This document shows, in pieces, positions 1 through 21,346 of a DNA stretch of 64,000 bases; position 1 is the first letter of the stretch, and each line of letters begins with the position of its first letter. Under the pieces are notes generated by a model. That model made no database searches and was not told the DNA's origin. It saw only the letters and a program-made list of their open reading frames with translations. Location of the stretch: positions 373,852 through 437,851 of the forward strand of contig JBMOMC010000043.1 in assembly GCA_049325335.1 (NCBI GenBank), read 5' to 3'. The stretch comes from Nitrospirota bacterium (lineage in GTDB: Bacteria; Nitrospirota; Nitrospiria; 2-01-FULL-66-17). Position numbers and translations under genes: made by a program.

Positions 1-23
1 CCGTGCGAATCGAGTCGGCATTT

Positions 24-1247
24 TTAGAGGCAGATCACGTCCTGTCCCGGATACCGCAGAGAGAGAAACAGCAGGAGATAGTCCCGCAGATGCCGTGTCA
101 GCAAGAAGTGCTCCCGCACGTGCTCGCGGCCCTGTTCTCCAAGGCGTTGCGCGTAGTCCGGCTCGCTCAACAGTTGTTTGATCCAGTAGGCCGTGCCTTC
201 GATCGAGTGCGTCAATATGCCGGTGCGGCGGTGCGCCACTTGCAGCGGAATGCCGCCCACCGCGCCGGCAATGACCGGCTTGCCTTTCCAGAGGGCTTCG
301 GACACGGTCAGCCCGAAACCTTCCTTGATGGATTTCTGAATGATGAGCGTCGATGCCCGTTGGATGGCATTGATTTCCAGATGGCTGGTGGGAGGAAGTG
401 CCCGCACGATGACGTCCTCGTCATGCTGCGCGCGCTCTTGCACCGCGGCCAGGACCTGGGCGCCTTCCGGATCATCGTCGGCCGAACCGCCGACCAGCAG
501 CAGTCGGGCGTCAACGTACGCACGAGCCAGCCGAAACGCATCGATGACGCCCAGCGGGTCTTTCAACCAGTCAAAACGGGAGACCTGGGTGACCAACGGC
601 TTGTCCAGCGGGATGTCGAGTCGATCCATGACGGCGGCGATCGTCTCGGGTGGGAGGTCTCGATTTTTCTCGCTGAGCGGATCGATCGACGGAGCGATGA
701 GCACCTGACGCACGCGGAGCCGCTGCGCGAACGACGGCGCCGAGAACACGGCGGCGTTGTACTGTTCGATCAACGGCGCGAGGAACGCCCAGACTCGCGG
801 GTCCGGTCTGGACACGTCGAGATGACACCGCCAGATCCAGCGGCCTCCCGCTGCGGGCTTGCGCGCCACGAGGCCCGCGGGTTGCGGGTCGTGGATAAAG
901 ACCACGTCGTGGTCCAACGCCATCTGCGCCAGGTTCTCTTCCTGGGCCGCCCGGTACGCGTCAAAGTCATCGTCGGTAAACGACTGGGCCACGCCGTGCA
1001 ATGCGTTGTGGAACTTCTTGGTCACGTCGAAGAACCGATCCCCCCCTTTGATCACTTGCCACTCGGTGTGAACCCCGAGTTGGTTGAGGAGCGGCACCAT
1101 CCGTGTGAGGATCTCCGCGACGCCCCCGCCCACCGGCGTGGAGTTCACGTGACAGACGGAACTACCGCGCAGACGATCCGCCAACAATTGGATCTCGTCG
1201 GTCACGGCTTCCCCGACGACGGAGACGTAGTCTTCGAAGCGGATCAT
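24..1247 (-). CDS. treT: GT4 glycosyltransferase, TreT-like trehalose synthase
   Basis: Motifs HVNSTPVGGGVAEIL, IHDPQP, WRCHLD, QVSRFDWLKDPLGVI and EGFGLTVSEALWK are typical of TreT-like enzymes. Start reassigned to ATG 1247, which overlaps the upstream stop (ATGA). Confidence 0.85.
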   Translation of the reverse strand: MIRFEDYVSVVGEAVTDEIQLLADRLRGSSVCHVNSTPVGGGVAEILTRMVPLLNQLGVHTEWQVIKGGDRFFDVTKKFHNALHGVAQSFTDDDFDAYRAAQEENLAQMALDHDVVFIHDPQPAGLVARKPAAGGRWIWRCHLDVSRPDPRVWAFLAPLIEQYNAAVFSAPSFAQRLRVRQVLIAPSIDPLSEKNRDLPPETIAAVMDRLDIPLDKPLVTQVSRFDWLKDPLGVIDAFRLARAYVDARLLLVGGSADDDPEGAQVLAAVQERAQHDEDVIVRALPPTSHLEINAIQRASTLIIQKSIKEGFGLTVSEALWKGKPVIAGAVGGIPLQVAHRRTGILTHSIEGTAYWIKQLLSEPDYAQRLGEQGREHVREHFLLTRHLRDYLLLFLSLRYPGQDVICL

Positions 1248-1918
1248 GCCGTCTCCTGTTCGCGAATGCGCTGTGCAGTCAGGCGGGCGATGCGACGACG
1301 CAACCCCTCCAGGGTCTGCGTGTAGGGGTCCATCCCGGCGATGGACCGAGCCAGGGAGTGTTCGCCCAGCGAGTGCTCCATCCATGCGGAAAAGTCGTTT
1401 CGTTCGCGCTTGAGGCGCAGCCGCGCATCGATCATGTGGTGGTAGAGGGAATGGACGGAGACCTTCTGCAGCCCGTCGAGGAATTCGCCGAGGGTGCTCG
1501 CCTGGTAGGGGGTGGGAAGGATGACGTTCACGGCTTTCATGAAATGAAATTCGCCGTTGTCCGGCGCCACGCGTTGGACCGTGGCGTTGGCCACATATCG
1601 CTCAAGAATGCCGATCAGTGCGTCACGCAGCGTTTCGAGGGAGTGAAACCGGACGATGTCCACCGCGGCAAATTGTTCGCCAAGCCGCCGTTCACCGAGC
1701 ATCTCCGCGGTCCAGTACGCGAAATCGTTGGGCGGTTCCGGCGACACGAATTGGTGGTCGTTCACGAATCGATGGGTGTGTTGGTAGATCACGCCCACGG
1801 GCACTACCCGCAGGTGATTGAGCAATTCCTCTATTGTCCGCGCTGAGAGGCCGGTCAGTTCAACTTGAACGATCTGGGTGACGAATCGAAACGGCTCAAC
1901 GGCGATCGGTGTCATCAT
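1244..1918 (-). CDS. DUF5752-like (OrfY-like) protein with internal duplication
   Basis: Two similar halves (PFRF...IYQH...NDFAYW..LGE and EFHF...LYHH...NDFSAW..LGE). Lies between TPP and the TreT-like gene with ATGA overlaps. Confidence 0.75.
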   Translation of the reverse strand: MMTPIAVEPFRFVTQIVQVELTGLSARTIEELLNHLRVVPVGVIYQHTHRFVNDHQFVSPEPPNDFAYWTAEMLGERRLGEQFAAVDIVRFHSLETLRDALIGILERYVANATVQRVAPDNGEFHFMKAVNVILPTPYQASTLGEFLDGLQKVSVHSLYHHMIDARLRLKRERNDFSAWMEHSLGEHSLARSIAGMDPYTQTLEGLRRRIARLTAQRIREQETA

Positions 1919-2736
1919 GACGGACGCTCTCCCAGATCAGCCGTGTTGAGCCATTGTTCGATAAAGCGTCGAACGTGATCCGGACTGGGCAAACAGTATC
2001 GCGCGGCGCTGCGGCGCGGCGGGCCCACCAAGATGCCGATCCCGTCGCGCCGGATGGCGCGGAAGGCGTCCTCGTCGGTCGTGTCGTCTCCCAGGTAGAC
2101 CGGGGTGCGACCGGTCAAGGTTGGGTGGTCGATCAGCCACCGCACCGCAGCGCCTTTGTGCCAGCCACCAAGCGGCCGCAACTCGAGAACGGCTTTCCCC
2201 CGGACCACGCGCAAGCGGCCGTTGGCCGTCGGTAGGGCGAGTCGCTCGCAAAGCGTGGGCAGCCAACGTCGGCGCTCCGCCGGGGCCACGAGCCGATGGT
2301 GGATGCTGGCGGTCGGTCCCTTCCGCTCGATCAGCACGCCCGGCGGCGCGTCGGACTCGATCGCGGTCAGCAGACGATCGAGCTCGCGCGGCCAGGCCGC
2401 CGGAAGCGGTATGCGGTATCGCACCCCGGGCCCGGAGATCTCCAGGCCGTGGTTCCCCACATAGTAGAGCGAGGGTACGCCCACCAGTTTCCGCAACGCG
2501 CTTCGTGCGCGTCCGCTGACAATCGCGACCGGAAGACGCCGGGCCAGGGCGCTCAGGAGCCGACGGCCGGCCTCGTCAAGGACGGCCTGATCCGGGTGCG
2601 GCGCGATTGGAACCAACGTCCCGTCGTAGTCCAAGCACAAGAGGATTGAGCGCGTCATCAGCCGCTTCGCCAATACCGCGGGCCTGACCCTGATGGGTCG
2701 CCCGGCGGCGCGCCCGGGCGCGGGCACGACCGCCAT
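1915..2736 (-). CDS. otsB: Trehalose-6-phosphate phosphatase (HAD)
   Basis: LDYDGTL, IVSGR, GNHGLE, KGAAV and YLGDDTTDEDAF motifs. Start ATG 2736 or GTG 2739 overlaps the otsA stop. Confidence 0.92.
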   Translation of the reverse strand: MAVVPAPGRAAGRPIRVRPAVLAKRLMTRSILLCLDYDGTLVPIAPHPDQAVLDEAGRRLLSALARRLPVAIVSGRARSALRKLVGVPSLYYVGNHGLEISGPGVRYRIPLPAAWPRELDRLLTAIESDAPPGVLIERKGPTASIHHRLVAPAERRRWLPTLCERLALPTANGRLRVVRGKAVLELRPLGGWHKGAAVRWLIDHPTLTGRTPVYLGDDTTDEDAFRAIRRDGIGILVGPPRRSAARYCLPSPDHVRRFIEQWLNTADLGERPS

Positions 2737-4976
2737 CACGTCCCGCCAAAGGGCTCGGAAGCCGCCACGCGGACTTCCGCGACATCCGCGACGAGATTTG
2801 CCGCCCACCGATAGATGTTGGACGTGCGGATCTGCTCGCGCATCGCGGACATTCGCCGGTTCTGTTCGTCCGTCGGCATGCCCAGCGCGTACGCGATCGC
2901 GTCGGCGAGTTGTTCCGTGTCGTAGGGGTTGACGATCAGCGCAGTGGCGAGTTCTCGCGCGGCGCCGGTAAACGGACTCAGGATGAGGGCCCCGGAGTCA
3001 TCGTCCCGAGCGCTGACGTATTCCTTAGCGACGAGGTTCATGCCGTCATGCAACGAAGTCACCATACAGACGTCCGCGATTCGGTACCACTTGAGAATGT
3101 CGCGGTGGGTGTGGTGTCCCTTAAGAAAGAGCAGCGGGGTCCAGGTTTTGGTGCGGAATCGCCACGTGATGCGGTCCGATTCCGCGTCGAGCTCGCTTAC
3201 CAGGTCGTGATAGCGTGGAATGTGCGTGCGGCTCGGTGCGCCGAGTTCCACGAACGTGAAGCGCTCGCGGAACTCCGGATATTTGTCGAAGAACCGTTCG
3301 ATGCCACGAAACCGCTCGGCAAGGCCTTTTGTGTAGTCCAGCCGATCCACCCCCACGCCTACGCGCACGGTGGGCGGGAGCCCGAATTCCTTGAGTAGGA
3401 TCTCGCGCGCGTCCGGGCCCGGTGCGGGATCGGACCATGGGGCCACGCTGATCGGGTACGGCCTCACCAACGCGGTCTGCTGCTCGCGGGCGACGGCGAA
3501 TCGCTCGCGGTCGATGCGGCACTCCAGGGCGCGGTCGACCGTGTCGAGAAAATTATTGCAGTGAAACTGGATGTGAAAACCGATCAGGTCCGCACCCAGC
3601 ATGCCGTGCAGGATCTCTCGCTGCCACGGGCAGATCGCCATGGCTTCGGGATTGGGCCATGGAATGTGCCAGAACAAACCGACGCGTGCGTCAGGACGCG
3701 CGGTTTTGATCAAGCGCGGCAGGAGCGCGAAGTGATAGTCCTGGATCAACACCACCGGTTCCGGGCTCTCTTCGATCTCGCGCAGCACGGCGTCGGCAAA
3801 CTTGGCGTTGACCGCCTGGTACGCGGCCCAATCGTCGCTCCGAAAGGTCGGCCGCGTATGGGCGATGTGACACAACGGCCAGAGCCCTTCGTTGGAGAAT
3901 CCGTAGTAGTATCCCTGCTCCTCGTCTTTGCTCAGCCACACGCGCTTGAGCGTGTACGCGGGCTCGTCGGGCGGAACGCGCACGCGGTCGTGCTCGTCCA
4001 CGGTGAGCAAGTCCGCGTCTCCGCTGCCGTGCGCGACCCACAATCCTTCGGATGCGCGCATAACGGGTTCGAGTGCCGTGACCAATCCGCTCGCCGGCAC
4101 GACCCACTCGACGGCCTTGCCCCGGCGCATGTGGATATAGGGCTCGCGGTTGGACACGAGGACGAACGCCCGGCTTTCGAGTTTGGTGCGCACGAACTCC
4201 TTGAGGCGTTCCGCGGTCCACAGGGATTCGGACGTCAGGCGAAGCCGCGCCTCCTGTTCGGCCGAGGCGCGGGCTTGGGCCAGGCTGGAGACCATGCGCG
4301 CGGCTTCCGACGCCAAGGGTTTGAAGAAGGACTCAGGTACCGGGGGCTTCCCGACCGGGACCTGGCCCAGACGGAGTTGTTTCATCCATTCGGCCATGCG
4401 CGCGATGGGACCGTGGATGCTCCACCGGACGACGAGCAACGTGGTGAGGGCGACGGCAAACGCGTAGGTCAGCAGACGCAAAAAGCTGTTGGTCCAGATT
4501 TGCTTCATGCGGTCACGGATGTATTGGGCGTCGTGAACCACGGCGAGCACGCCGACGTTCTGTTCCCCTTCGATCAGCGGCAGTGCATACACGTGGAGCA
4601 GCCGACCATCGCGCTCAATCAACTCGCCGTGGTCGCGTCCCGAGTCCAAGACGGATCGGGTATCGACGAAGAACGTGGGCGTGGACAGCGCGGCGGTTGC
4701 CACGAGCGGCGCTCCGGTCGGGTCGAACACCGCAATGCCGACCAGTTGTTCCCGGTTGCCGAATCGGTCCACGATCCGACGGAGCGAACGTGTCTGGTGG
4801 TTCGCCAGGGCCGGCGCCACGGTCTCCTGGAGACTCTCCCCCACGAGTTGCGCGCGCCGTAACAAATCATTCTCGGATCGGTCATATTCGCGCCGTGTCT
4901 GGCTGAACGTGAAGACGACGACCGCCGCGGTTAGCACGACCACGAGTGACACGATGAGACGCAGCGAAATCTTCAT
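2736..4976 (-). CDS. otsA: Trehalose-6-phosphate synthase (GT20) with N-terminal TM-periplasmic-TM-HAMP-like extension
   Basis: C-terminal ~480 aa has VSNREP, YYYGFSNEGLWPLCH, QDYH, WHIPWP, VDRLDYTKG and DGMNLVAKEY. N-terminal ~250 aa has two hydrophobic helices flanking a soluble domain. Confidence 0.92.
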   Translation of the reverse strand: MKISLRLIVSLVVVLTAAVVVFTFSQTRREYDRSENDLLRRAQLVGESLQETVAPALANHQTRSLRRIVDRFGNREQLVGIAVFDPTGAPLVATAALSTPTFFVDTRSVLDSGRDHGELIERDGRLLHVYALPLIEGEQNVGVLAVVHDAQYIRDRMKQIWTNSFLRLLTYAFAVALTTLLVVRWSIHGPIARMAEWMKQLRLGQVPVGKPPVPESFFKPLASEAARMVSSLAQARASAEQEARLRLTSESLWTAERLKEFVRTKLESRAFVLVSNREPYIHMRRGKAVEWVVPASGLVTALEPVMRASEGLWVAHGSGDADLLTVDEHDRVRVPPDEPAYTLKRVWLSKDEEQGYYYGFSNEGLWPLCHIAHTRPTFRSDDWAAYQAVNAKFADAVLREIEESPEPVVLIQDYHFALLPRLIKTARPDARVGLFWHIPWPNPEAMAICPWQREILHGMLGADLIGFHIQFHCNNFLDTVDRALECRIDRERFAVAREQQTALVRPYPISVAPWSDPAPGPDAREILLKEFGLPPTVRVGVGVDRLDYTKGLAERFRGIERFFDKYPEFRERFTFVELGAPSRTHIPRYHDLVSELDAESDRITWRFRTKTWTPLLFLKGHHTHRDILKWYRIADVCMVTSLHDGMNLVAKEYVSARDDDSGALILSPFTGAARELATALIVNPYDTEQLADAIAYALGMPTDEQNRRMSAMREQIRTSNIYRWAANLVADVAEVRVAASEPFGGT

Positions 4977-6040
4977 GCGCCCTCTCTTGCCGCCGATCCG
5001 GTGATCGGCCCCTGCTCTTCGCCGTGCACGTACACGGTGCGCGACGGGTATGGGATCTCGATGCCCTCGGCTCGGAATCGTTTGAGGATTCGTAAACGCA
5101 ACTCGTGCTGCACCAGGTATTGATCGACGAATTCGCGGACCTGGCAGATCAACGTCCAGTCCAACGACGACTGACCGAAGCCAGGAATGAATCGAACAAA
5201 CGGCGCGGGATTTGCCAATAAGCCGGGAACCTGCCCTGCGGCGTGAGTGGCTTCTTCGACCAAGATTCGTTGCACCAGCGCGGTATCCGAGTCATACGAT
5301 ACGCTGATCGGAATCAGCAACGCCATGCTCTTGTCGGGCAGGCTGTAGTTAAGGATTCGTGCTTGCGCGAGTTTGTTGTTGGGGATGATCACGACGTTGT
5401 TGGGCAGCAGGCGAATGCGCGTGGTGCGCCACCCGATGTCGCTGACCGATCCCTCCTCCCCGCTCTCGAGTTTGATGACGTCGCCCACCCGGATCGACTT
5501 TTCCATCAAGATGTGAATCCCGGCAAAGAGGTTGGAGAGCGTGTCCTGCAACGCCAAGGCAAGGGCCAAGCCGCCCACGCCCAACGCGGTCAGGATCGGC
5601 GCGATGGAGACGCCGAGGGTGCCGAGCAGGATCAGCACGCCGAGCGAGATGATGACGCCCTTGACCACCACTTGGGTCAGCCCGGCGACCGGCAGCTCCG
5701 CGCGCTCGGCCGCGTAGCGCAGCGCGTGCGACGCGATGTTGGCGGCGACGAAGGTGAACGAGAGGATGACCAATGCGTGCAGGATCGAAAACGAGACCTG
5801 GATGATGCGCGGGGGCAGCACGGAGGTGCCGATGCCGACATACAGACCCAGGGCGATTGCCCACGAAATCGACGGCCCGCGAATCACGCTGAGGAACAGA
5901 TCATCCAGCGCGGTCTCGGTCTTCGCGGCCCAGCGGCGGAACAGGGCGAGCAGGAGGCGACGTGCGAAGAGCGCGGTGCCGGCCACCGCGATAAAAATGG
6001 CGGCCGAGGTCGCGATCTGGCGGAGCGTGGTGGGATCCAT
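4973..6040 (-). CDS. Small-conductance mechanosensitive channel (MscS family)
   Basis: ALGVGGLALALALQDTLSNLFAG, GDVI...IGWRTT and IPNNKL motifs; several TM helices. Confidence 0.92.
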   Translation of the reverse strand: MDPTTLRQIATSAAIFIAVAGTALFARRLLLALFRRWAAKTETALDDLFLSVIRGPSISWAIALGLYVGIGTSVLPPRIIQVSFSILHALVILSFTFVAANIASHALRYAAERAELPVAGLTQVVVKGVIISLGVLILLGTLGVSIAPILTALGVGGLALALALQDTLSNLFAGIHILMEKSIRVGDVIKLESGEEGSVSDIGWRTTRIRLLPNNVVIIPNNKLAQARILNYSLPDKSMALLIPISVSYDSDTALVQRILVEEATHAAGQVPGLLANPAPFVRFIPGFGQSSLDWTLICQVREFVDQYLVQHELRLRILKRFRAEGIEIPYPSRTVYVHGEEQGPITGSAAREGA

Positions 6041-6160
6041 GCGAGGTCTCCGACTGAAAATGATATGGAAACGTGCGCTGTCTAGCGCATCGGCCGCGAC
6101 GAAGTCAAGGGACGGCGGTCGATCGCGTGCGCGACATCCGTGCGGGTGCGAGCCGAGGGG

Positions 6161-7294
6161 TTACTGGAGTAATGCCAGCACGGTGTCGCCGTAGCGAGCG
6201 ACCTGCCAGCGGCGGACGCCGGGGACCGCGGCCAATGTTTCGATGGCCCTGGGCCACGCGCGCACGATCGACTTGAGTTGGTCCGTGGACAAGATCATGG
6301 CGGGTTCCACGCCTTCCTCCCTGGCCTGGTTGCCGCGCCAGACGCGAAGGCGCGCGAACGCGCGTTCTTGCGCCGCGCTGAACGGTTCCTGTCGAACCCC
6401 CGCGCGTTGGGGCAGCGGGGTGGGGTCGGCCAAGCCCTCGCGGATCGCTTCGATCCATCGCAAGGGCTCCCGTCGAGCGGGCGCGGAGGCGGAGGGAAAG
6501 AGCGCATCCAGCTCGGCGGGCGTTTGAGGTTGCTGCAGGGCCAACGTCAATAAGTCTTCGCCGGAGATGACTTTGAACGGCGGCCGGTTCAGGCGTTTGG
6601 CCATGCGGTCGCGCACCACGGCCAACGCGCGCAGGGCGCGTTGCGCGGGCGGGGGCAGCAGGGGGGCGCCTTTGATCCGCACGTAGTCGTCGGGGTGGAA
6701 CGCGCGGCCGGTCCACTCGCGCCGGCTCATCCACTCGCCTTCCTCCTCGACCTGGGCGAGTCGCCCTTTGGCTTCGACTTCCTTGCGCATGATCTCGTGC
6801 AGAGGAGGCAGGTACTGAGTGTCTTTAGCCGCGTAGTCGAGCAGGTCAGGCGCGAGCGGGCGTTTGGACCAATGGGCTTTCTGGTATTTTTTCTCCAGGG
6901 TGACGCCGAAGTACCGTTGGAGCAAATCTCCCAACGAGTATTTGGGTTCTCCCGCGGCCTGCGCGGCCAAACAGGTGTCGAAAATCGTGACGATGGTGAA
7001 CCCGAAGTCACGTTTGAGCCCCACCACGTCGTAATCCGACCCATGGAAGACCTTCAGAATCGAGGGGTCCGCGAAGAGAGGGGCGAGGGGTTGAACGTCC
7101 GCCAGCAGCAAGGGATCGATCACCGCGGTAAATCGTCCGTCGCTCATCTGAATGAGTGACACGCGTTCTTGATACGCGTGCAGCGAATCGGACTCGGTAT
7201 CCACCCCTACCACGCTGGCGCGGCGCAAGATGGCCGCGGCTTCAGCCAGGGCGTCGGCGGTGGTGACGTAGACGTAGTCCGTGGGGTCGGTCAT
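6161..7294 (-). CDS. rnd: Ribonuclease D-like 3'-5' exonuclease with HRDC domains
   Basis: VDTE, KVFHGSDYD, FDT, WSKRPL and YAAKDT exonuclease motifs. Start reassigned to ATG 7294; TATAAT on the minus strand at 7374-7379. Confidence 0.85.
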   Translation of the reverse strand: MTDPTDYVYVTTADALAEAAAILRRASVVGVDTESDSLHAYQERVSLIQMSDGRFTAVIDPLLLADVQPLAPLFADPSILKVFHGSDYDVVGLKRDFGFTIVTIFDTCLAAQAAGEPKYSLGDLLQRYFGVTLEKKYQKAHWSKRPLAPDLLDYAAKDTQYLPPLHEIMRKEVEAKGRLAQVEEEGEWMSRREWTGRAFHPDDYVRIKGAPLLPPPAQRALRALAVVRDRMAKRLNRPPFKVISGEDLLTLALQQPQTPAELDALFPSASAPARREPLRWIEAIREGLADPTPLPQRAGVRQEPFSAAQERAFARLRVWRGNQAREEGVEPAMILSTDQLKSIVRAWPRAIETLAAVPGVRRWQVARYGDTVLALLQ

Positions 7295-7474
7295 CAGTGA
7301 GCGTCGGCGTCTGTGATCCGGGACATCGTGCGGCCGCGCGTCGCGGCCGTTGGAAAGCCCTTGATCGACGCGAATTATACCGAATATGGCCGCGGCTTGC
7401 GAGGGCGGCACCACGGGGTGCCGCGGCCGCGCTTATGGTACAATGCGCGCCTGCCGAAACCTCGGAGAGACGAC

Positions 7475-8905
<1,431 letters not shown>

Positions 8906-8988: not shown

Positions 8989-9066
8989 TCCCCGGGCGCC
9001 GTCTTTACTGTTTGATCGGTTGGCATCTCTGGCGTGTGGGGAAAATTTTGTTATGCTTGCCGACCG

Positions 9067-9534
9067 ATGAGACGGAATGGTCTGATCGGATCACTCGGCA
9101 CCCGTGCGACCGCGTGCCTGATCGCGACGCTGATCCTGTGCGGTCTCTCATGGTCGGCGCGTGCGGAATCCATCGCCGTGATCGTCAATGCCGACGGCCC
9201 GCTGGTCGGTCTCACGCGCGCCGACGTGCGGGCGCTGTATCTCGGTGATCGCCAGTTTGTCGGCGCCGAACGGGTGTTGGCCCTCCACCTGCCGGAGGGA
9301 CCGGTCAAGGACGCGTTGCTGCGCGATGTGACCGGCAAGGGGTTAAAGGCATACCGGCTTCATTGGGTGCAGAAAGTCTTCCAAGAGGGTCTGAGCCTTC
9401 CCCGGGTCGTCGGTGCGCCGTCGGCGGTGGTGGCCGAGGTGCAGTCCCATTCCGCCGATATCGGGTACGTGCCTGAGAGCGCGGCCGACGGTGTGCATGG
9501 CATTGCGATTCTGTTCCGGGTTCCGGGGCCATGA
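9067..9534 (+). CDS. Small secreted periplasmic-binding-protein-like accessory protein
   Basis: Signal peptide ending ARA; IAVIVN...LTRADVRALYLG...IGYVP pattern of small PBP-like proteins; ATGA overlap with the DGC. Confidence 0.7.
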   Translation: MRRNGLIGSLGTRATACLIATLILCGLSWSARAESIAVIVNADGPLVGLTRADVRALYLGDRQFVGAERVLALHLPEGPVKDALLRDVTGKGLKAYRLHWVQKVFQEGLSLPRVVGAPSAVVAEVQSHSADIGYVPESAADGVHGIAILFRVPGP

Positions 9535-11336
9535 CCAGGACCAGGACGTCTTCGATCCGGGGCCGTCTCACGGCCATCGTGATTGCCGCCACGTTGCTGG
9601 CGGTCGGCGTGGTGGCGGTGCTGATGTACGTGATCGGCGATTTGTCTCGCACCGTGCAGGAGTTGGACCGACTCACGGTCCGCGTCGAACTGACGAATCG
9701 CCTCCAATTGGAACTCAGCCGGCTGTTGATCCCCCTCAATGCCTACTTGCTCACGGAAGACCTGTCCCGTCGTGACGCGTTCGATCAATCGATCGAGGAG
9801 ATTTCCCGCCTTTTGAACGACTTGCCGCGGGACCAGGCCGACGGCCAATGGCGAACCGTGGCCCAGGAGGTTCAGGGCCGCGTGACCCAGCTCAGTCTGT
9901 TGGCCGTGGAGGTCCTGTTCGTCGACCAACCGCTCGGCAACCCGCAGGTGATCCGACTCATGGACCGAGTCAATCGGTTGTCGGATGACACGATCAGTCA
10001 GGCCGCGCGCTTTCATGAATTGGCCGCACAGGAGATCGAAGCGCGACGGCAGCGCGCGGCGATCCAGTCCGTGCAGGTGAACCGGTTGCTGGCCGGAGTG
10101 GTGATTCTGGCGCCGCTGGCGCTCGTCGTGTTCTATCTGCTATTGACCCGGTGGGTGACGGTGCGCTTGAGCGCGCTCTCGCAGGGTGTGTTGGCCCTCC
10201 GATCCGGCCGCGCCGCGCGCCTGCCCGTGCACGCGCGCGACGAGATGGGCGAGGTCGCGGGCGCGATCAACGAACTGGCCGACCATCTCGCGGTTTCGCG
10301 CGAGGAGGCGCAGCGACGGACGCGCCAATTGGAGGCGGTGTACCGGGCCAATCAAACGTTGAGCAAGCAAAGTTCGCGCGAGGGGCTGTTCCACTCGCTC
10401 ACTGCGCTGGTACGATCCGAACTCAATATTCCATACGCGGCGCTGGCGGTGTTCGACGAGCGTGGGCAACTCGACCAGTTGATCGAGTCCGGCGTGCCCC
10501 CCGTGCTGCGTTGGAGCGAGCCGGATCGGCGGGCCATGATCGCCCTCCTGCCGCGTGAAGACCGGCCGTTGCGGTTCGCCAACCACGAGTCCGAGACGTG
10601 GATGCCGCGAGTCCCCGGTCCACCGGTGACGTCGCTGATGGCCGTCCCGGTGTTGGTCGAATCGCGCCAGCGGGCGTGGTTATATCTGTTCCAAACCCGT
10701 GACGAGACGTTCTCCGACGAGGACGAGGGCCTCGTGTTGACGATCGCCGCGGACGCCGGCCAGTCGCTCAAGGTGATCGCGTTACACGAGGAGGCCGAAC
10801 GGTTGGCGTCGATCGACGCGCTGACCGGGTTCATCAATCGAGCCGCGTTTGAAGACCGGCTCGGCCAGGAATTTTCCCGCGGGGCGCGCCACGGCCGTCC
10901 GTTCGCGTTGGTGTTCATCGACTTGGATCACCTCAAGACGATCAACGATCGCTTCGGCCACGCGGTCGGCGACGCCGCGATTCGTCGCTTCTGCGACGCG
11001 ATCCGCGACGTCATTCGCGCGACCGACGTGGTCGGGCGATACGGGGGGGACGAAATCCTGGTGCTCATGCCGGAGACCGATCTGCGCGAGGCCCTGCAGG
11101 CGGGCAACCGTATCTTGTCCCGGGTGGTCGGTTCTCCCCTTGCCGTGGAGCGCGAGCAAGTCGCGCTCTCGGCCAGCATCGGCATCGCGATCTTTCCCGA
11201 GCACGGCCGCGACAAGGAGGCGTTGTTACGGGCGGCCGACTTCGCGCTGTACCAGGCGAAAGCTGCGGGACGCGGACGCGTTCATGCCGTCACCCCGTCG
11301 GCGCCCCGCGCCGCCGATGGGTCGCAAGCGGCGTAA
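9531..11336 (+). CDS. Membrane diguanylate cyclase (TM-periplasmic-TM-HAMP-GAF-GGDEF)
   Basis: DALTG, IDLDHLKTINDRFGHAVGD, RATD I-site followed by RYGGDEI; HAMP motif RDEMGEVAGAIN. Confidence 0.9.
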   Translation: MTRTRTSSIRGRLTAIVIAATLLAVGVVAVLMYVIGDLSRTVQELDRLTVRVELTNRLQLELSRLLIPLNAYLLTEDLSRRDAFDQSIEEISRLLNDLPRDQADGQWRTVAQEVQGRVTQLSLLAVEVLFVDQPLGNPQVIRLMDRVNRLSDDTISQAARFHELAAQEIEARRQRAAIQSVQVNRLLAGVVILAPLALVVFYLLLTRWVTVRLSALSQGVLALRSGRAARLPVHARDEMGEVAGAINELADHLAVSREEAQRRTRQLEAVYRANQTLSKQSSREGLFHSLTALVRSELNIPYAALAVFDERGQLDQLIESGVPPVLRWSEPDRRAMIALLPREDRPLRFANHESETWMPRVPGPPVTSLMAVPVLVESRQRAWLYLFQTRDETFSDEDEGLVLTIAADAGQSLKVIALHEEAERLASIDALTGFINRAAFEDRLGQEFSRGARHGRPFALVFIDLDHLKTINDRFGHAVGDAAIRRFCDAIRDVIRATDVVGRYGGDEILVLMPETDLREALQAGNRILSRVVGSPLAVEREQVALSASIGIAIFPEHGRDKEALLRAADFALYQAKAAGRGRVHAVTPSAPRAADGSQAA

Positions 11337-12130: not shown

Positions 12131-12217
12131 GCCGGTGTGGCGGAATCGGCAGACGCAAGGGACTTAAAATCCCTCGGGGGCAACCCCATCCCGGTTCGAT
12201 CCCGGGCGCCGGCACCA
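12131..12217 (+). tRNA. tRNA-Leu (anticodon TAA)
   Basis: GCCGGTG acceptor stem, D-arm GGCGGAATCGGCAGACGC, anticodon arm AGGGA-CTTAAAA-TCCCT, long variable arm, GGTTCGAT T-loop, encoded CCA. Confidence 0.96.
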
Positions 12218-14779: not shown

Positions 14780-16228
14780 ATGCCGGCTAAGGACAAAAAG
14801 CCAACCAAAGACCTGGAAACGCTGCTGGCGCCGTATAACCCGTGGTGGGTGGAGCCGCGTGGCGTCTGGCGTGACAATTTGCCGGAGTATCAACGGCCCG
14901 TGGTGCGGGAGCTGCTAGCCGATCTCGCCGAGTTGCCGCAGATGATTTCCATCACCGGGCCTCGCCGCGTGGGCAAAACAACCGCCCTCAAGCAGGTCAT
15001 TCGTCACTTGTTGGATCACGAAAGCGTCGAGCCCGGTCGCATTCTCTATTTCTCGTTCGACGATCCGGAGGTGTACGGTTCGCCCGATCTCCAGCGGACA
15101 CTCTTCGAGCAACTCGTGACGCATGCTGGGGTGAAGCCGGGGCATGCAGGACGCTGCTATTTTTTCCTGGACGAAATCCAGCGCCTCCCAAAATGGGAAC
15201 TACATCTTAAGAAATACTACGACCTCAAGTATCCCATTCGCGTTACCGTCTCAGGTTCGGCCTCTTCGCCGATTTTCCGAAGCTCGCAGGAAAGTTTGCT
15301 TGGGCGCATCAAAGACCGCCACCTCTTGCCGTTCGGTTTCCGTGAATATTGTCAGTATCACCTGCGCGACCGGCCGCAATTTGCCACGACGCTTGATCGG
15401 TACGCCAATCTGCGTGGTCTTCTGATGGAAGGCAAGGGCACGGAGGTAGTGCAATTCGTGAACGCCATGCATGAGGCGTTCACACCGTTCGAATCCGAGC
15501 TCACCCGCGCAGTTGTCAGCTACTGCCGCGAAGGCGGGTTCCCCGAAGTCTGGAGCCTCCCCGATCCCGTGCGTAAGATGGAGTACCTGATGGAGCAGCA
15601 GGTGCGCAAGGTCCTCTATGAGGACCTCATGGCGCTCACGCAGTACCGCAAGCCGGAGAACGTGCTGCGCTTCTTCGTGTATCTGCTGGCCCATCCGGGT
15701 ATCGAGATCAACATGTCCACGGTGGCGCGTGACGCCGGCGTGGAGCGGCGCGTGGTGGACGAGAATCTCCCGCGCCTTGAAATGACCGACCTCGTCATCC
15801 GCATCCGGAAATTCAGCCACAAGCCGCTGCGTGTTCGCCAGGGGAATATCAAGTGTTACCCGGTGGATCTTGCGCTGCGCAACGCGGTGCTCAAGACCTG
15901 GGACGACTTTACGCAGAACCCGACGATGATGGGCCTCTACGCGGAAAATCTCGTCGCGCACGAACTCAGGAAATGGCCGGAGGCGATCGAGGTGACGTAT
16001 TACCGCGAAAAGGCGCAAGAGGTGGATTTCGTCGTCACACACGGTGGCGCGCGCTACCTGCCCCTGGAAGTGAAACACCGTACGGCGACCGCGGCGGTTT
16101 CGGGGCTGCGGCATTTTCTCAAGAAATTTCGGCTCGATTTTGGCGTCGTCATCACGCGCGATCGCGATTGTCGCTTCGAGCACAGCATCCTTCACTTGCC
16201 GCTTCGATATTTTCTACTCGCGAACTGA
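14780..16228 (+). CDS. AAA_14 ATPase with DUF4143 / PD-(D/E)xK-like C-terminus
   Basis: Walker A GPRRVGKTT, Walker B FFLDEIQ, SGS, GGFPE, ENLV and EVDFV...PLEVK. Confidence 0.85.
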   Translation: MPAKDKKPTKDLETLLAPYNPWWVEPRGVWRDNLPEYQRPVVRELLADLAELPQMISITGPRRVGKTTALKQVIRHLLDHESVEPGRILYFSFDDPEVYGSPDLQRTLFEQLVTHAGVKPGHAGRCYFFLDEIQRLPKWELHLKKYYDLKYPIRVTVSGSASSPIFRSSQESLLGRIKDRHLLPFGFREYCQYHLRDRPQFATTLDRYANLRGLLMEGKGTEVVQFVNAMHEAFTPFESELTRAVVSYCREGGFPEVWSLPDPVRKMEYLMEQQVRKVLYEDLMALTQYRKPENVLRFFVYLLAHPGIEINMSTVARDAGVERRVVDENLPRLEMTDLVIRIRKFSHKPLRVRQGNIKCYPVDLALRNAVLKTWDDFTQNPTMMGLYAENLVAHELRKWPEAIEVTYYREKAQEVDFVVTHGGARYLPLEVKHRTATAAVSGLRHFLKKFRLDFGVVITRDRDCRFEHSILHLPLRYFLLAN

Positions 16229-16328
16229 GGGGAGATGCGTGAAGGCAGTAATCACCATGTCGCCAACAGGCCAAAAAGTAGATCCGTGCCGTGGTTAGCT
16301 ACTCAGCCAACAATAAAATATCTTGATC

Positions 16329-18749
16329 GTGGCTCCTCTGACCGATAAGGAGAAACGCGAACTGCTCCGGCTAATTGAGGCCGGGGAGCCGTTGCCCGAG
16401 AAATGGCGCGGCCGGTTGTTCCCCGGAGGCGTAAGGGGGCCGGAGGTGGGGAAGGAATACCGGCTGGTCTATGACGGCAAGGCGCGGCGGGAGGAGGTGC
16501 TGGCGCAGACGCCGGCGGCGCCGTGGCAACTCGTCCGGCAGTTCTGCACTGAGCGCCCGCATCCGGATGGCTGGCGCAACCTGCTCGTGTGGGGCGACAA
16601 CCTGTTGGCGTTGCGCGAGTTGCTCGCCGACCAGCAGGGACCGAACCGCTTCGGCACGCGCGGCAAGATCCGCCTGATCTACATCGACCCGCCATTCGCC
16701 ACGCGGCAGGACTTCATGAAGGACAAGGAAAAGGCCTACCGCGACAAGGTGCTTGGTTCGCAGTTCATCGAGTTCCTCCGCCGACGGCTCATCCTCCTTC
16801 GCGAACTCCTTGCCGATGACGGCAGCATCTACGTCCACCTCGACTTCAAGAAGGGACACTATATTAAGGCAGTCCTCGATGAAGTCTTCGGTGAAGAAAA
16901 CTTCGTAAACGAGATCGTGTGGCAACGTTCCACGGCACACAACATGCGCACTAAAGGGTGGACGCGGTGCAATGATACATTGCTCTTTTATCGTAGGAAC
17001 GACCGTTTCGTCTTCAACGAGCAATTCGTTGGTTACAGCGCCGAGCAATTGGCCCGTTATAAGCGGGACGAAAACGGTGAACTCTACAAGGGCGAGAATC
17101 TCACCTTTTCTGGAGTAAATAAGGCCCGCCAGTTCACCTGGCGTGGGAGTAAGCCGCCTGCAAATCGCTCATGGGGAGCGGACGAGGACCAACTTGAACG
17201 TTGGTGGGCGGAGGGGCGCATCCTCAAGAAGCAGGACGGTAGCCCCCGCCTCGATGGACTCAAGATTTTTTTGAAGGAAACGAAAGGCGGCAGCCCCGTT
17301 ACGACGAATTGGACGGACATAGAGCGAATCGGTAACACGTCGGAAGAGCGCACGGATTACCCGACTCAGAAGCCTGAACAACTTCTGGGACGCATCATTC
17401 GCGCCTCTTCTAACGAAGGCGATATCATCCTCGACTGCTTCTCCGGCAGCGGCACGACAGCGGCGGTAGCCGAGAAGCTGGGGCGGCGTTGGATCGCGAT
17501 GGATTGCGGCAAGCTGGCGATCTATACGGCGCAGAAACGCCTGTTCTCCCTCACCACCACCATCGGTGCGGTCAAGAAGGACGACCGGAGCGAACCCGAT
17601 CGCGTGGAGGATTGGGGTGAGCATCTCAAAGAGGCGCCCGGTGTTCTCCTCATTACCGAGAAAGCCCGCAAAGGCGAATGCGAGGTGACGCTCGACCTCC
17701 TCGAAGACCTCGCCGCGCTGGTCAAAAAGCACGACCTCATTAAGAAGGATGCCGCGGTCTCGCTCGTCTGTCCCAAGGACAAGTTGAGTATTCCGGGATC
17801 GAAACTTCAAGACACTGACGAAGGCCCCGGCGCCAAGCGAATCAAGGTCAACGGCGTGGAGTTTCGCATCTCGTTCGTGACGGAGAAGGACAAACCGGAG
17901 AAAGACAAGCCCTTGCCGGCGCGGGAGTTCGCGCTGTATCGGGCTGGTGTGTACGACATGGCGGCGATCAAAGCGCTGCCGTGGGCCGAATACCGCCCGT
18001 TCGTGCTAAAGCTTTTCGGCGTGCGCGAACATTCGCACACCCGCTACGGCTTCACACTGGACGGCTACGTGGGCACGCACTCGGCCCTGCTCTGGAATTA
18101 CCCTGACCACAAGAAGCTGACCATCGACCACGGCTACGTGGACGACTTGCACCGCACGCTGCGCGGCAAGCCTGGCGAACGGTTCTACGTCATCGCCCCG
18201 GTTGTGTCGATGGCGTTCGCCGAAGACGAGGTGGTGCGGAACGGCACAACCTACGTCTTCCTCAAGGTGCCAATTTCAGTGCTGCTGAGATTGATCGAGG
18301 CAAAGGAACCCGCGGCGCTGAAGCAACCGACGAAGGAAGCGGACGTGAACGAGGTCATCGACGCGGTCGGCTTCGACTTTATCTCGCAACCTCTGGTGGT
18401 GGTGAAAGCCAAGAAGGAGAAACCGAAAGGCGAGTTGTTCGCGGATTGTGTACTGGAGATCCGCGAGTTTCGTTCGCAGACGCTGGCAACGGACCCGGAG
18501 GACTTCGCCAACTTCGAGACGTTCTCCATGGCCATGGTGGACCTCGACTATGACGGCGACGTCTTCCGGCTGGGCCGGGTTTTCTGGGCTGACGACCTAT
18601 TGAAAGATGCGGGCGGGCTGGAGAAGGCCGAGCGGCTGGCGGTGCGAATTCCTGAGCAGGACTTCATCGGAAAGCGCCTGATGGTGATTCTGTCCGACCG
18701 ATATGGAAACGAAAAGACGCTGGTCTTTGAGAAGAAGGATTTCCGATGA
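16329..18749 (+). CDS. mod: Type III restriction-modification DNA methyltransferase (Mod) with long C-terminal extension
   Basis: GDNL, LIYIDPPF (motif IV), YPTQKPEQLL and LDCFSGSGTT (motif I) in beta-class order; ATGA overlap with Res. Start GTG 16329 or TTG 16323. Confidence 0.88.
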   Translation: MAPLTDKEKRELLRLIEAGEPLPEKWRGRLFPGGVRGPEVGKEYRLVYDGKARREEVLAQTPAAPWQLVRQFCTERPHPDGWRNLLVWGDNLLALRELLADQQGPNRFGTRGKIRLIYIDPPFATRQDFMKDKEKAYRDKVLGSQFIEFLRRRLILLRELLADDGSIYVHLDFKKGHYIKAVLDEVFGEENFVNEIVWQRSTAHNMRTKGWTRCNDTLLFYRRNDRFVFNEQFVGYSAEQLARYKRDENGELYKGENLTFSGVNKARQFTWRGSKPPANRSWGADEDQLERWWAEGRILKKQDGSPRLDGLKIFLKETKGGSPVTTNWTDIERIGNTSEERTDYPTQKPEQLLGRIIRASSNEGDIILDCFSGSGTTAAVAEKLGRRWIAMDCGKLAIYTAQKRLFSLTTTIGAVKKDDRSEPDRVEDWGEHLKEAPGVLLITEKARKGECEVTLDLLEDLAALVKKHDLIKKDAAVSLVCPKDKLSIPGSKLQDTDEGPGAKRIKVNGVEFRISFVTEKDKPEKDKPLPAREFALYRAGVYDMAAIKALPWAEYRPFVLKLFGVREHSHTRYGFTLDGYVGTHSALLWNYPDHKKLTIDHGYVDDLHRTLRGKPGERFYVIAPVVSMAFAEDEVVRNGTTYVFLKVPISVLLRLIEAKEPAALKQPTKEADVNEVIDAVGFDFISQPLVVVKAKKEKPKGELFADCVLEIREFRSQTLATDPEDFANFETFSMAMVDLDYDGDVFRLGRVFWADDLLKDAGGLEKAERLAVRIPEQDFIGKRLMVILSDRYGNEKTLVFEKKDFR

Positions 18750-21346
18750 GTCTGCAGTTCCGTATCGCGGATCAGGTGCTCCGTGTGGACGACGCGCGTG
18801 ATGCCACGGAGGGACGGGTCCACAAATACGACGCGTTCTTGAACCTGCTGTGTGCAGATCGCTATGCCTTTCAGCGTGAGGCGGTGCGCGAGGCCTGGCG
18901 CTTTCTTGTGTCGGACAAATATCCGGACCTCGAACGGCTCGCGCGCGAGAACTGGAACACTCGTGAGGCGATTCGTCAGCGGCACGAAAGTGTAGACGCC
19001 TATCTAGCAAAGATGCCGCTGCGTGGCTGTAAGGCGGTGTCGCTCGACCTAGCGACGGGCACAGGCAAGAGCTTCGTGATGTATGCGCTGGCGGCGATCG
19101 CGTTGGCCGAAGGGCTGGTGGATCGGGTGCTCGTGCTGTGCCCGTCGCTGACCATTGAAGACGGACTGTTGGACAAGTTCACCACGCTGGCGGGCAACAA
19201 CGAGCTGGCGGCGATCATGCGCGAGTTGGGCGCCGTGGTGGCGATTCCAGGCATTAAGCGCGGGAATCAGACCGTTCAGGCCGGCGACATTTGTATTGAG
19301 AACATCCATGCAGTCTACGAAAACGCCGGTTCGTCGATCGCGGACAGTTTCCGTGGCTACGGTGCCCGGACGCTGGTGCTGAACGACGAGGCGCACCACA
19401 TCTTCAGTCCGCTGGACAAGGGGTTGAAGGAGTGGTTGAAATTCCTGCTGCACACGGATTACGGCTTCCGGCACATCGTCAACGTTACCGGCACTCCCTA
19501 TGTCGGTAACGACTATTTCCCTGACGTGGTGTTCCGTTACGGCTTGAAGCAGGCCATTGCCGACAAGGTGGTGAAGAAGCCGAACTACAAGCTGGAAGAC
19601 ACGTACGCCGCGCACGACTGGCAGAAGACCTACGCGATTCATCAAAAGAACCGCAAGGACTACGGCGCGAAACTCAAGCCGATTAGCATCGTGGTTACGC
19701 AGGAGATCGCGCGTTGTGTGGAGGTGTGGCGGGATCTCGTTGAGTTCCTGGTGACGAAGGAGGCGATTAGCCGCGCGGAGGCGGAGCAGAAGGTGATTTG
19801 GGTGACCTCGGGCATTCCGACGGGGGCCACCGACAAGGCGCGAGTTGAAGCGGCTTACGGACCGCGAAACGACAAAGACTCTCCGGAGAAACGGCGCAAG
19901 GAAAATCTCATCCTTCTTCGCACGGTGGACGATCCGGCGAACGACGTGGAGTGGATCGTGTCCGTCAGCATGCTGACGGAAGGCTGGGACGTGAAAAACG
20001 TTTTCCAGATCGTGCCGCATGATTCGCGGGCGTTCTCGTCGAAGTTGCTCATCGCACAGGTGCTCGGCCGAGGGCTGCGCGTACCGCCGGGACTGGTGAC
20101 GGAACCACTGGTGACGATCAACAATCATGAGGCATGGTCGGAGGAAATCGGCAACCTGCTGAAAGAAGTGCTGGAGGTGGAGAACACGCTCTCGTGGGGT
20201 TACGAGGCGCGCCGGGCCGCCTTTGCATTTCCGCTCCACAACCTGCGGTACGAACCGGAGCAGAAGTCGGTGGAAACCAAGCGCGAAAAAGCGCGTGAAC
20301 CCGAGGTGAACTTCCAAACACAGAATCGGAAGACGACGGAGTACTCCACCTTTTCCGAGACCGGCGCGTTGTCAGTCGAAATCCAGCACCTCGACTTACT
20401 TGAGATCGACGACGCGGTGCGGCTTATGCGGCTATTCCTACGGGAGAAAGACGAGAAAATTGCCGCCAAATGGCCAAAGAAACGGCTCCAAGATTTTATC
20501 GTAAGCGGATTGAAGAGGGCGGGGCAAGAGACAACCTTCCTCAGCAAGCAGAACTTTCTGTTGCTCCAGCACAGCTTTGGGCCGATGTTCCGCGAACTCG
20601 ACAAAGAGCATCCGCGCATGACCCAGACGGCGAAAGACCTCGTGCTCATCGACCTCGCTGCGGTGCCACGGCAATCGTTCTCCGAAGACACGCTCAAGGA
20701 GCACGGGACGGTGTACTACGCGAAGGAAGCGCAACCTCCTTACGGCCCACCAGAATTGCACCTGTGGGACCAGTACCAACGCCTCCGCAAGCAGCTTGCC
20801 GATTACGGGAACGACGCGTCCGACCAGGCGAAGGCGGTGGGATCACGACTTCAGGAAGTGGATCCCCCGAAGTTTAAGATGCCTTGGAACGTGCTTTACG
20901 CCAGCCATGAACCGGAGCGAAAGTTCTCCGATTTGCTGTTCCTGAACGCGGAACTATTCGATGGCTTCGTCAAAATGCCGAATCAGGGTGGCTACTCCTT
21001 CCCGTATTCTTACAAGCCGGCAAAGACCGCGAAAACCCACACGGCGAATGAGAACTTTAACCCAGACTTCTTTCTTCGGGTGCGTGGAAAGCACGACATC
21101 CTGGTGATAGAGATCAAGGCCGAAGGCGACGACTCCAACCGCAACCGCGCCAAGTGCCGTGATGGCCAGGCACATTTTCAAACACTTAACGCGAAACTTG
21201 CTGAAAAGCGCGTGCCTTGGTGCTACCACTTCTATTTTCTGTCCCCCGAAGACTTTACGAGCTTCTTCGAGCGAGTTCGGCAAGGCACCCTTGCCGGATG
21301 GAAGTCGGGGTTGATGCAGACGCTTGAAGGTGATCAGGTGGAATAG
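18746..21346 (+). CDS. res: Type III restriction endonuclease (Res), SF2 helicase plus nuclease
   Basis: LATGTGKS, NDEAHH, TGTP, MLTEGWDV, QVLGRGLR; C-terminal NPDF...VIEIK. Confidence 0.88.
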   Translation: MSLQFRIADQVLRVDDARDATEGRVHKYDAFLNLLCADRYAFQREAVREAWRFLVSDKYPDLERLARENWNTREAIRQRHESVDAYLAKMPLRGCKAVSLDLATGTGKSFVMYALAAIALAEGLVDRVLVLCPSLTIEDGLLDKFTTLAGNNELAAIMRELGAVVAIPGIKRGNQTVQAGDICIENIHAVYENAGSSIADSFRGYGARTLVLNDEAHHIFSPLDKGLKEWLKFLLHTDYGFRHIVNVTGTPYVGNDYFPDVVFRYGLKQAIADKVVKKPNYKLEDTYAAHDWQKTYAIHQKNRKDYGAKLKPISIVVTQEIARCVEVWRDLVEFLVTKEAISRAEAEQKVIWVTSGIPTGATDKARVEAAYGPRNDKDSPEKRRKENLILLRTVDDPANDVEWIVSVSMLTEGWDVKNVFQIVPHDSRAFSSKLLIAQVLGRGLRVPPGLVTEPLVTINNHEAWSEEIGNLLKEVLEVENTLSWGYEARRAAFAFPLHNLRYEPEQKSVETKREKAREPEVNFQTQNRKTTEYSTFSETGALSVEIQHLDLLEIDDAVRLMRLFLREKDEKIAAKWPKKRLQDFIVSGLKRAGQETTFLSKQNFLLLQHSFGPMFRELDKEHPRMTQTAKDLVLIDLAAVPRQSFSEDTLKEHGTVYYAKEAQPPYGPPELHLWDQYQRLRKQLADYGNDASDQAKAVGSRLQEVDPPKFKMPWNVLYASHEPERKFSDLLFLNAELFDGFVKMPNQGGYSFPYSYKPAKTAKTHTANENFNPDFFLRVRGKHDILVIEIKAEGDDSNRNRAKCRDGQAHFQTLNAKLAEKRVPWCYHFYFLSPEDFTSFFERVRQGTLAGWKSGLMQTLEGDQVE

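Follow-up and report, generated by a model that had tools for sequence, protein, structure and literature searches.

A trehalose-6-phosphate synthase joined to a Cache-HAMP membrane module in Nitrospirota: a candidate receptor-enzyme

The trehalose-6-phosphate (T6P) synthases of the OtsA type with solved structures are soluble dimers or tetramers that respond to metabolites (PMC6879718). What could such an enzyme do when it is built into the membrane behind a sensor? The question is raised by the tps gene (protein P0001) in a stretch of 64,000 nucleotides from a Nitrospirota bacterium (contig JBMOMC010000043.1, positions 373,852 to 437,851; hereafter the window). The initial annotation read the gene product as a one-component receptor that gates T6P synthesis on a periplasmic or membrane signal. 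From the architecture and its conservation we likewise consider that P0001 is probably a dimeric membrane receptor-enzyme, in which a periplasmic or membrane change would act as a direct switch on T6P synthesis. The gene and the parts of its product are as follows:

2736..4976, minus strand: sensor-fused trehalose-6-phosphate synthase gene (tps, P0001), 746 amino acids; AlphaFold model with a mean predicted local distance difference test score (pLDDT) of 86.6
4902..4958, minus strand: first transmembrane helix (TM1), residues 7-25, N-terminus predicted inside; hydropathy peak 2.71, mean of 2 Lys/Arg in residues 1-7
4491..4892, minus strand: single Cache (extracytoplasmic PAS-like) domain, residues ~29-162; structure matches to WalK, KinD and CitA
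4422..4484, minus strand: second transmembrane helix (TM2), residues ~165-185; hydropathy peak 2.03, mean of 4 Lys/Arg in residues 184-203
4257..4421, minus strand: divergent HAMP domain, residues ~186-240, from hhalign
4221..4322, minus strand: AS2 and signalling helix, residues 219-252; modelled as a single unbroken helix (216-252)
4173..4220, minus strand: invariant W253/L258 cap plus helix 255-266, running into the first GT20 strand; from column conservation
2778..4166, minus strand: GT20/OtsA catalytic domain, residues 271-733; Pfam E 9.6e-109

The fusion is a genuine one. All the sequence motifs on which the initial annotation had relied (LIVSLVVVLTAAVVVF, GIAVFDPTG, HVYALPL, VGVLAVVHD, PIARMAEWMKQL and FKPLASEAARM) are present, and so is the N-terminal extension, although its length had to be corrected from ~250 to ~268 residues because the Pfam GT20 match starts at residue 271. 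The GC content at third codon positions is alike in both halves of the gene (0.79 in the N-terminal part, 0.81 in GT20). Further, the architecture extends well beyond this assembly. A homologue search with residues 1-265 retrieved 609 proteins among 7,999 scored candidates, from at least 11 phyla. Both same-genus genomes and hundreds of other records carry the fusion, which is therefore neither a product of chance nor a chimera, and we rejected an assembly chimera or frameshift fusion as its source. Among the matches listed, 120/120 homologues carry PF00982, and the nearest named ones belong to Nitrospiria/Nitrospirota (84% over the N-terminus). By label, the 11 phyla are Nitrospirota, Acidobacteriota, Pseudomonadota, Myxococcota, Thermodesulfobacteriota, Elusimicrobiota, Omnitrophota, Bacteroidota, Gemmatimonadota, Verrucomicrobiota and Vulcanimicrobiota. 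Cultured bacteria that carry it include Rhodoferax ferrireducens and Noviherbaspirillum aridicola. Against 1.84 billion representatives, a profile search found 234 matches at E<=1e-30; at E<=0.001 it found 3,023, some of which are no doubt ordinary receptors. A GTDB scan gave at least 600 matches, from which 80 loci were kept, a set biased to full-length matches; the module lies in the T6P synthase (TPS) open reading frame of 78 of them, the exceptions being L050, at a contig edge, and L100. Input, transducer and output are thus kept as a one-chain unit in the 120 listed homologues and in 78/80 loci. Of 151 genomes of the phylum sampled with less bias, 51 had a GT20 gene; among the best 30 of those GT20 loci, 18 had the module and 12 lacked it, and the 18 were exactly those with more than 50% GT20 identity to P0001.

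A quick IQ-TREE phylogeny of 115 GT20 domains (midpoint root; 11 duplicate loci and partial domains excluded) placed all 100 fused sequences together with L050 and L100 on one branch (length 0.85; support 99 by the SH-like approximate likelihood ratio test, SH-aLRT), apart from 13 soluble sequences. The fused proteins form two subfamilies, A and B (support 81 and 89), and P0001 belongs to A. A single old fusion is the simplest reading of these sequences, in a tree with a thin outgroup. The sister group includes fusions of TPS with trehalose-6-phosphate phosphatase (TPP), among them L105, whose apparent extension of ~500 residues was rejected as an over-long reading frame ahead of a soluble TPS-TPP. 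A Mesorhizobium plasmid match (81% coverage) was also rejected as a family member, as it has no transmembrane module. We checked for other outputs in 153 proteins (150 listed representatives and three long homologues): 53 reach GT20, 67 stop within 35 residues past the module, and the 33 remaining tails turn out to be either the first few residues of GT20 or sequence read out of frame. The module was not seen joined to another output domain among these 153 proteins, which are mostly fragments; weak matches to kinases do occur (L082, E 9e-11). In three members (P0023, P0024 and P0035; 913-931 residues) the Cache domain is duplicated in tandem and the linker spacing described below is 32. P0026 bears an additional C-terminal LMWPc/ArsC-like domain (residues 765-885, E 3e-22). 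A few copies are damaged or mis-assembled: L038 is without TM2, and the split in L045 falls in the N-terminal part, that in L094 within GT20.

The catalytic half keeps the substrate-binding residues of a synthase. P0001 scores 364.6 bits with PF00982 (cut-off 32.5), and its full-length model superimposes on OtsA 5v0t (Z 43.1, 436 aligned residues, root mean square deviation [rmsd] 2.1) and 5jij (Z 42.3), all with the GT-B fold. We mapped substrate-binding residues through an alignment to the Mycobacterium thermoresistibile enzyme 5jij, with residue roles taken from PMC6879718, and followed them in 117 sequences filtered to <80% identity. The donor contacts R286, K291, D385-L389, E393 and H168 correspond to R545, K550, D644-L648, E652 and H437, each kept in 116/117 sequences. 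The glucose-6-phosphate (G6P) contacts R18, Y90, D144 and R324 correspond to R277, Y357, D413 and R583, kept in all 117; at a further G6P-contact position, Q146 of the mycobacterial enzyme, all 117 have histidine (H415 here). The domain is intact, as first described. Among stand-alone GT20 models the best is the NCBIfam OtsA equivalog TIGR02400 (417.2 bits, under its cut-off of 564.85), well ahead of GgpS (282.2 bits); all NCBIfam GT20 models score under their cut-offs. On sequence and predicted fold, we assign the protein as a trehalose-6-phosphate synthase. We do not assign a sugar donor: L578 is the counterpart of the ADP-favouring L319, yet in the family this column holds Ile in 65 of the 117 sequences, against 43 with Leu.

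The N-terminal half resembles the input module of a membrane receptor. A hydropathy scan found exactly two transmembrane helices (7-25 and 165-183), as had been proposed, and each has basic residues next to its inner end. A separate model of this part (270 residues, pLDDT 91.6) has helices at 2-58 and 62-73, five strands, and helices at 151-202, 216-252 and 255-269; a long N-terminal helix, a second helix and a five-stranded PAS-like sheet thus form the Cache domain between the two transmembrane helices, and a loop splits the helix ending at 202 from the one restarting at 216-219. Searched with VIA-align against 48,161 chains, the model matched the WalK extracellular domain best (4ywz, Z 15.2, rmsd 2.4, 134 aligned residues), then KinD (4jgo) and CitA (2j80), both at Z 13.3; a LapD-type domain (4u64) reached Z 11.3. 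Nearly all of the top 50 structural matches of the Cache region are extracytoplasmic sensor domains, which bears out the Cache-like region of the initial annotation. Foldseek retrieved 5is1 (E 4e-8) and, as its best match for the module as a whole, the WalK integrative model 9a5d (TM-score 0.74 over 255 columns; the template is itself partly predicted). By features, the Atlas yields sCache_3/HAMP clusters (0.96-0.97), and histidine-kinase and cyclase clusters reach TM-scores of 0.72-0.80. Sequence profiles agree weakly (5o7j, E 0.0009; 5is1, E 0.004), as do NCBIfam models for CreC, a YfiR-associated kinase, DgcN/YfiN and WalK (residues 1-250, E 1e-5 to 7e-5). No Pfam Cache family reaches its cut-off on P0001, the best being CHASE8 (residues 38-146, 17.2 bits against 27, E 0.006); sCache_3_2 is found at E<=0.05 in 13/61 members (best 3.3e-6). 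Periplasmic positions kept in both subfamilies are R41, loop 74-78 and D149, which from topology alone would lie nearer the membrane than a ligand pocket; the polar pocket residues differ between the subfamilies. The Cache region of subfamily B has exactly two cysteines in 24/24 sequences and again in 112/112 members, and that of subfamily A has none in 86/93. The pair in B would fit a periplasmic disulfide.

Downstream of TM2, the segment described at the outset as HAMP-like has the expected parts: AS1 with the conserved P190 and G204, a connector (204-219) and AS2 from P220. We compared the subfamily A alignment of residues 180-240 with 19 HAMP domains of the same genome by hhalign and obtained a probability of 95.1 (E 3.1e-8, 58 columns). 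Among 23 sliding windows used as controls, the 21 other than 151-211 and 181-241 reached at most 3.5. The Pfam HAMP family PF00672 has no match in P0001 and one among 61 members; P0023 gives E 0.0011, under the cut-off. The N-terminus does, then, show the Cache/HAMP fold.

An indirect sign that the two halves may work together lies in the helix that joins them. W253 and L258 are the sole invariant columns among 61 sequences of both subfamilies. From P220 to W253 the spacing is 33 in 92/93 sequences of subfamily A and 26 in 22/24 of subfamily B (25 in the remaining two), as rechecked without an alignment, and from W253 to S275 it is 22 in 115/117. The HAMP connector between G204 and P220 varies freely, taking 15 to 19 residues (five lengths) in A and 9 to 25 (eight lengths) in B. 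In the 120 listed N-terminal homologues, a set that overlaps the 117 sequences, the spacing is 33 in 116, 32 in three, and one has no proline; a further set has 26 in 119/120, the last being unmeasurable. Out of 149 divergent representatives, 54 could be measured: 32 had 33, 10 had 26, 12 had others and none fell at 29-31. The helix keeps small residues (A235, A239 and A243) and charged ones (E242 and R246), and in a regex-defined subset of subfamily A it is nearly as well conserved (0.72) as GT20 (0.75). The difference between 33 and 26 is exactly one heptad, suggestive of the signature of phase-keeping signalling linkers. Steps of seven in linker length are a mark of signalling coiled coils in Rec-GGDEF enzymes (PMC8041772). 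The step is suggestive and no statistical proof, because essentially one evolutionary event underlies it; as a feature of the sequences, it would lend indirect support to mechanical coupling.

The genomic setting is that of a trehalose operon. On the minus strand, tps sits in a run of five genes (mscS-tps-otsB-DUF5752-treT) whose stops overlap the starts of the next:

4973..6040, minus strand: mscS, small-conductance mechanosensitive channel family, 355 amino acids; three Pfam MS_channel families above cut-off
1915..2736, minus strand: otsB, trehalose-6-phosphate phosphatase, 273 amino acids; TIGR00685 148 bits against a cut-off of 68
1244..1918, minus strand: DUF5752 protein, 224 amino acids; Pfam E 1e-63
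24..1247, minus strand: treT-like GT4 trehalose synthase, 407 amino acids; Pfam TreT_GT1 E 1.9e-55

The tps start codon is an ATG with AAGAGAGGG just before it, and it overlaps the mscS stop (ATGA); the ATG of otsB overlaps the tps stop (TGATG). The treT-like protein scores 351 bits with NF041139, under the cut-off of 775. In this genome, which is 99% complete, tps is the only GT20 gene above cut-off, as in most sampled genomes of the Nitrospira family, and no GH15 gene was found. A promoter scan of window positions 1-7700 found one site against 1.2 expected, and none ahead of mscS. No riboswitch was found in an Rfam scan of the window, whose sole match is a tRNA gene at 12131-12214 (plus strand). 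Upstream of mscS lies an RNase D-like gene (6161-7414, minus strand); in genome G093 (L136:755-4471) a gene for a 1239-residue beta-propeller protein lies between the two, on the opposite strand. The two same-genus genomes (14 kb fetched) keep mscS-tps-otsB, and DUF5752 and treT were not seen there, which suggests a recent gain or loss of the DUF5752-treT pair (24-1918, minus strand).

Neighbours were counted across the 80 loci, which are of unequal length, by tblastn. Subfamily A (51 loci) has otsB in 27, DUF5752 in 17, treT in 17 and mscS in 3; subfamily B (29 loci) has otsB in 28, GH15 in 17, mscS in 2 and treT in 1. Overall, otsB is present in 55/80, mostly directly downstream. The GH15 neighbour bears a trehalase-like N-terminal domain, and a synthase next to it would need post-translational control. 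DUF5752 and treT co-occur in the identical 17 loci of subfamily A, and fusions of an MscS beta-domain with DUF5752 lie between the sensor-TPS and treT genes at L023:7889-9325, L075:9467-10840 and L138:6151-7542. For both reasons, DUF5752 is a possible link between TreT and a mechanosensitive channel.

The receptor-enzyme that we propose as probable builds on what the sequences show: how the domains are arranged, active-site residues that are all in place, the setting in a trehalose operon, one origin in the sampled tree and the one-heptad linker step. By analogy with other HAMP receptors, P0001 would form a parallel dimer in which a periplasmic or membrane change moves TM2 and repacks the HAMP domain, so that helix 219-252 rotates or shifts register. 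From the model and the OtsA structures, the W253/T254 cap and helix 255-266 could relay this motion to the N-terminal Rossmann lobe, entering just ahead of loop 293-297 and of R277, the residue that holds the acceptor phosphate. In mycobacterial OtsA the counterpart of this loop, like helix 1, shifts by up to 12 Å on closure (PMC6879718). Because the relay meets R277 and this mobile loop, the balance between open and closed enzyme would shift, and OtsB would then convert T6P to trehalose. Within this scheme the likeliest signal is the state of the envelope or the osmotic state, with a small ligand nearly as probable. A bolder version is possible, though we hold it tentatively: P0001 would be a one-protein osmosensing switch whose Cache-TM-HAMP module reads the envelope or turgor and starts trehalose synthesis within seconds, with MscS as a release valve alongside. 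Just as tentatively, it would then be the type of a widespread, undescribed class of receptor with a biosynthetic output, acting without kinases, second messengers or transcription.

Several observations weigh against the receptor-enzyme reading. The active sites of GT20 lie inside one protomer, unlike those of GGDEF enzymes, and create no obvious need for dimer geometry. The 12 divergent representatives (of 54) that depart from the two spacings have 24, 25, 27, 28, 34 (three times), 39 or, in four, no proline, and the hydrophobic period of the linker helix peaks at 3.35 (range 3.3-3.5), a helical value and not a clean heptad of 3.5. Among the folded parts, conservation is lowest in the Cache domain (0.53, against 0.75 for GT20), and mscS is near the gene in only 5/80 loci. 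By profile, the HAMP of subfamily B is unrecognisable (probability 2), and in a blind genome search with the subfamily A profile canonical HAMP domains took five of the top 25 places, none significantly. Given these two results, the hhalign probability of 95.1 and the single Pfam match among 61 members, the verdict from sequence is that the HAMP domain is real but divergent in subfamily A and degenerate in B. Natural variants also lack parts of the module. Three independent records from Dechloromonas/Azonexus (L088:6578-8632, P0272 and P0273) have a short loop in place of the Cache domain; they retain the transmembrane hairpin, a HAMP-like part and the spacing of 26. Relatives with a single transmembrane helix are L100:6854-8557, from a Bdellovibrionales genome, and P0270, an Aminobacter plasmid protein outside the tree; L100 and the single-helix version at the Aminobacter plasmid locus L133:4842-6659 keep the W-x-x-x-R cap. 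The variants suggest that membrane attachment and linker are the core of the design; as a few members do without the Cache domain in nature, a periplasmic ligand is no more than possible.

These same features would suit a plainer explanation, in which the module is a receptor relic kept as a membrane anchor and dimerisation scaffold, holding a constitutive enzyme beside MscS, OtsB or TreT with no signal passing. Members without a Cache domain or with a single transmembrane helix, the degenerate HAMP of subfamily B and the MscS-DUF5752 fusions at three loci, which point to a membrane-held trehalose complex, all speak for it. Anchoring, however, needs no linker fixed at 33 or 26 residues, and the heptad step beside a freely varying connector argues against a passive anchor. 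Nor does it call for a periplasmic domain of 130 residues, which almost every member in the 11 phyla retains and which bears a cysteine pair specific to one subfamily. We regard a mere anchor as unlikely. The module might instead transmit in the opposite direction, as in LapD, with substrate or T6P on GT20 acting through HAMP so that the periplasmic domain binds or frees a periplasmic protein. LapD-type 4u64 is indeed among the sequence (E 0.012) as well as the fold matches, and T6P acts as a signal to the OtsA of Arthrobacter (PMC5685639). Yet the input domains of WalK, KinD and CitA outscore 4u64, and no recurrent periplasmic partner cluster was found among the open reading frames of the 80 loci, where the recurrent neighbours are otsB, treT, DUF5752 and GH15. 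The enzyme domains of LapD are degenerate, whereas the catalytic residues here are intact in 116-117 of the 117 sequences, and inside-out signalling seems to us quite improbable.

A third alternative keeps the direction of signalling and changes its purpose: the T6P made by a receptor-type synthase would be a second messenger, switched off by OtsB much as diguanylate cyclases are paired with phosphodiesterases, and not the source of bulk osmolyte. This would suit an architecture otherwise typical of messenger cyclases, the separate TreT path to trehalose in the same operon and the regulatory part played by T6P in Arthrobacter (PMC5685639). The frequency of otsB (55/80 loci) and its overlap with the tps stop here are better suited to channelling towards trehalose, and no T6P-binding regulator recurs in the neighbourhoods of the 80 loci, making a messenger role very improbable. 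Finally, GT20 may make another product, such as glucosylglycerol-phosphate, or use a membrane-associated acceptor, for the NCBIfam models all remain under their cut-offs (OtsA 417 of 565) and no assayed enzyme of this clade was found in the literature. Against this stand the lead of OtsA over GgpS (417 to 282 bits), the match to all the G6P-contacting residues of mycobacterial OtsA, an adjoining trehalose-phosphatase gene above its cut-off and a sister group that includes TPS-TPP fusions (L105). A different product is thus extremely improbable.

With OtsA/Tps1 enzymes (5jij; Burkholderia 5v0t; Escherichia coli 1gz5/1uqt) P0001 shares the GT-B fold (Z 42-43, 30-34% identity), all donor and acceptor residues and an adjoining otsB. 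The solved enzymes align to residues 267-740 alone, however, and P0001 differs from them in its 268 extra residues (two transmembrane helices, Cache and HAMP) and in belonging to a separate clade (SH-aLRT 99). The best fold match of the extension is the input module of WalK (YycG)-type kinases, with which it shares TM1, a single Cache domain, TM2, HAMP and a helix, at 11-15% identity and with a divergent HAMP. Unlike WalK, P0001 matches neither of the Pfam families HisKA and HATPase_c, its output being a glycosyltransferase, and no YycH/YycI-like partner was seen in the neighbourhoods. Sensor, HAMP and enzyme also share one chain in YfiN/DgcN, LapD, HAMP adenylate cyclases and Chlamydia RsbU, and P0001 has weak matches to one-component receptors (DgcN/YfiN, E 6.5e-5, residues 1-250; 4u64; 6mab; a HAMP-cyclase Atlas cluster, TM-score 0.72). 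The outputs of YfiN/DgcN, LapD, HAMP cyclases and RsbU synthesise, degrade or bind second messengers, or remove phosphate from proteins. Compared with receptors of the YfiN/LapD type, the output of P0001 is a biosynthetic enzyme of sugar metabolism with its active site within one protomer. In Thermoproteus tenax an operon (msc-gt-tpsp) likewise places the gene of a mechanosensitive channel beside those of a GT4 glycosyltransferase and a GT20 enzyme, and the TPS needs activation at the protein level (PMC3634074). That enzyme, a soluble fusion of TPS and TPP, becomes active when it binds the GT4 protein and has no membrane sensor in its chain (PMC3634074). The OtsA of Arthrobacter strain A3 was also proposed to be an osmotic stress sensor but works by T6P-promoted self-assembly, and no membrane module is named in the abstract (PMC5685639).

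Both halves of P0001 belong to known families and chains of sensor, HAMP and enzyme are already a known kind. Cache-HAMP modules drive kinases, cyclases, phosphodiesterases, phosphatases and chemoreceptors, and a 2016 survey gives signalling outputs for all Cache families except SMP_2 (PMC4822843). A glycosyltransferase of core sugar metabolism as the output would extend transmembrane signalling to the direct control of metabolic flux. We found no published account of the fusion in the literature searched, which under-represents subscription journals: the word "transmembrane" does not occur in the first 300,000 characters of PMC11046441 and occurs once, in an unrelated context, in PMC7549927, and "trehalose" is absent from the text and from 12 of the 18 supplements of PMC4822843. 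Databases label the members plainly as trehalose-6-phosphate synthase, so automatic annotation hides the fusion. Since it is the sole GT20 match here and in most sampled genomes of the Nitrospira family, the fusion may control how nitrifiers and soil Acidobacteria withstand stress. As a one-chain system with an easy assay (UDP/ADP release), it would allow one to ask what an osmosensor senses and how a single-protomer enzyme reads HAMP motion, and members that lack the Cache domain, have it twice or are one heptad shorter are ready natural controls.

Elsewhere in the window, a 166-residue protein without a Pfam family overlaps a HAMP-GAF-GGDEF diguanylate cyclase (9034-11336, plus strand) and is possibly, as a guess, its periplasmic partner. 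A type III restriction-modification-like group at 14780-21346 (plus strand) encodes an AAA_14/DUF4143 ATPase, an N6/N4 methylase and a ResIII helicase in DNA of lower GC content (~0.59). Further along are an Mfd/TRCF gene (41777-45067, minus strand) and a gene for a 1277-residue REC-PAS-GAF-GGDEF-EAL protein (45877-49710, plus strand).

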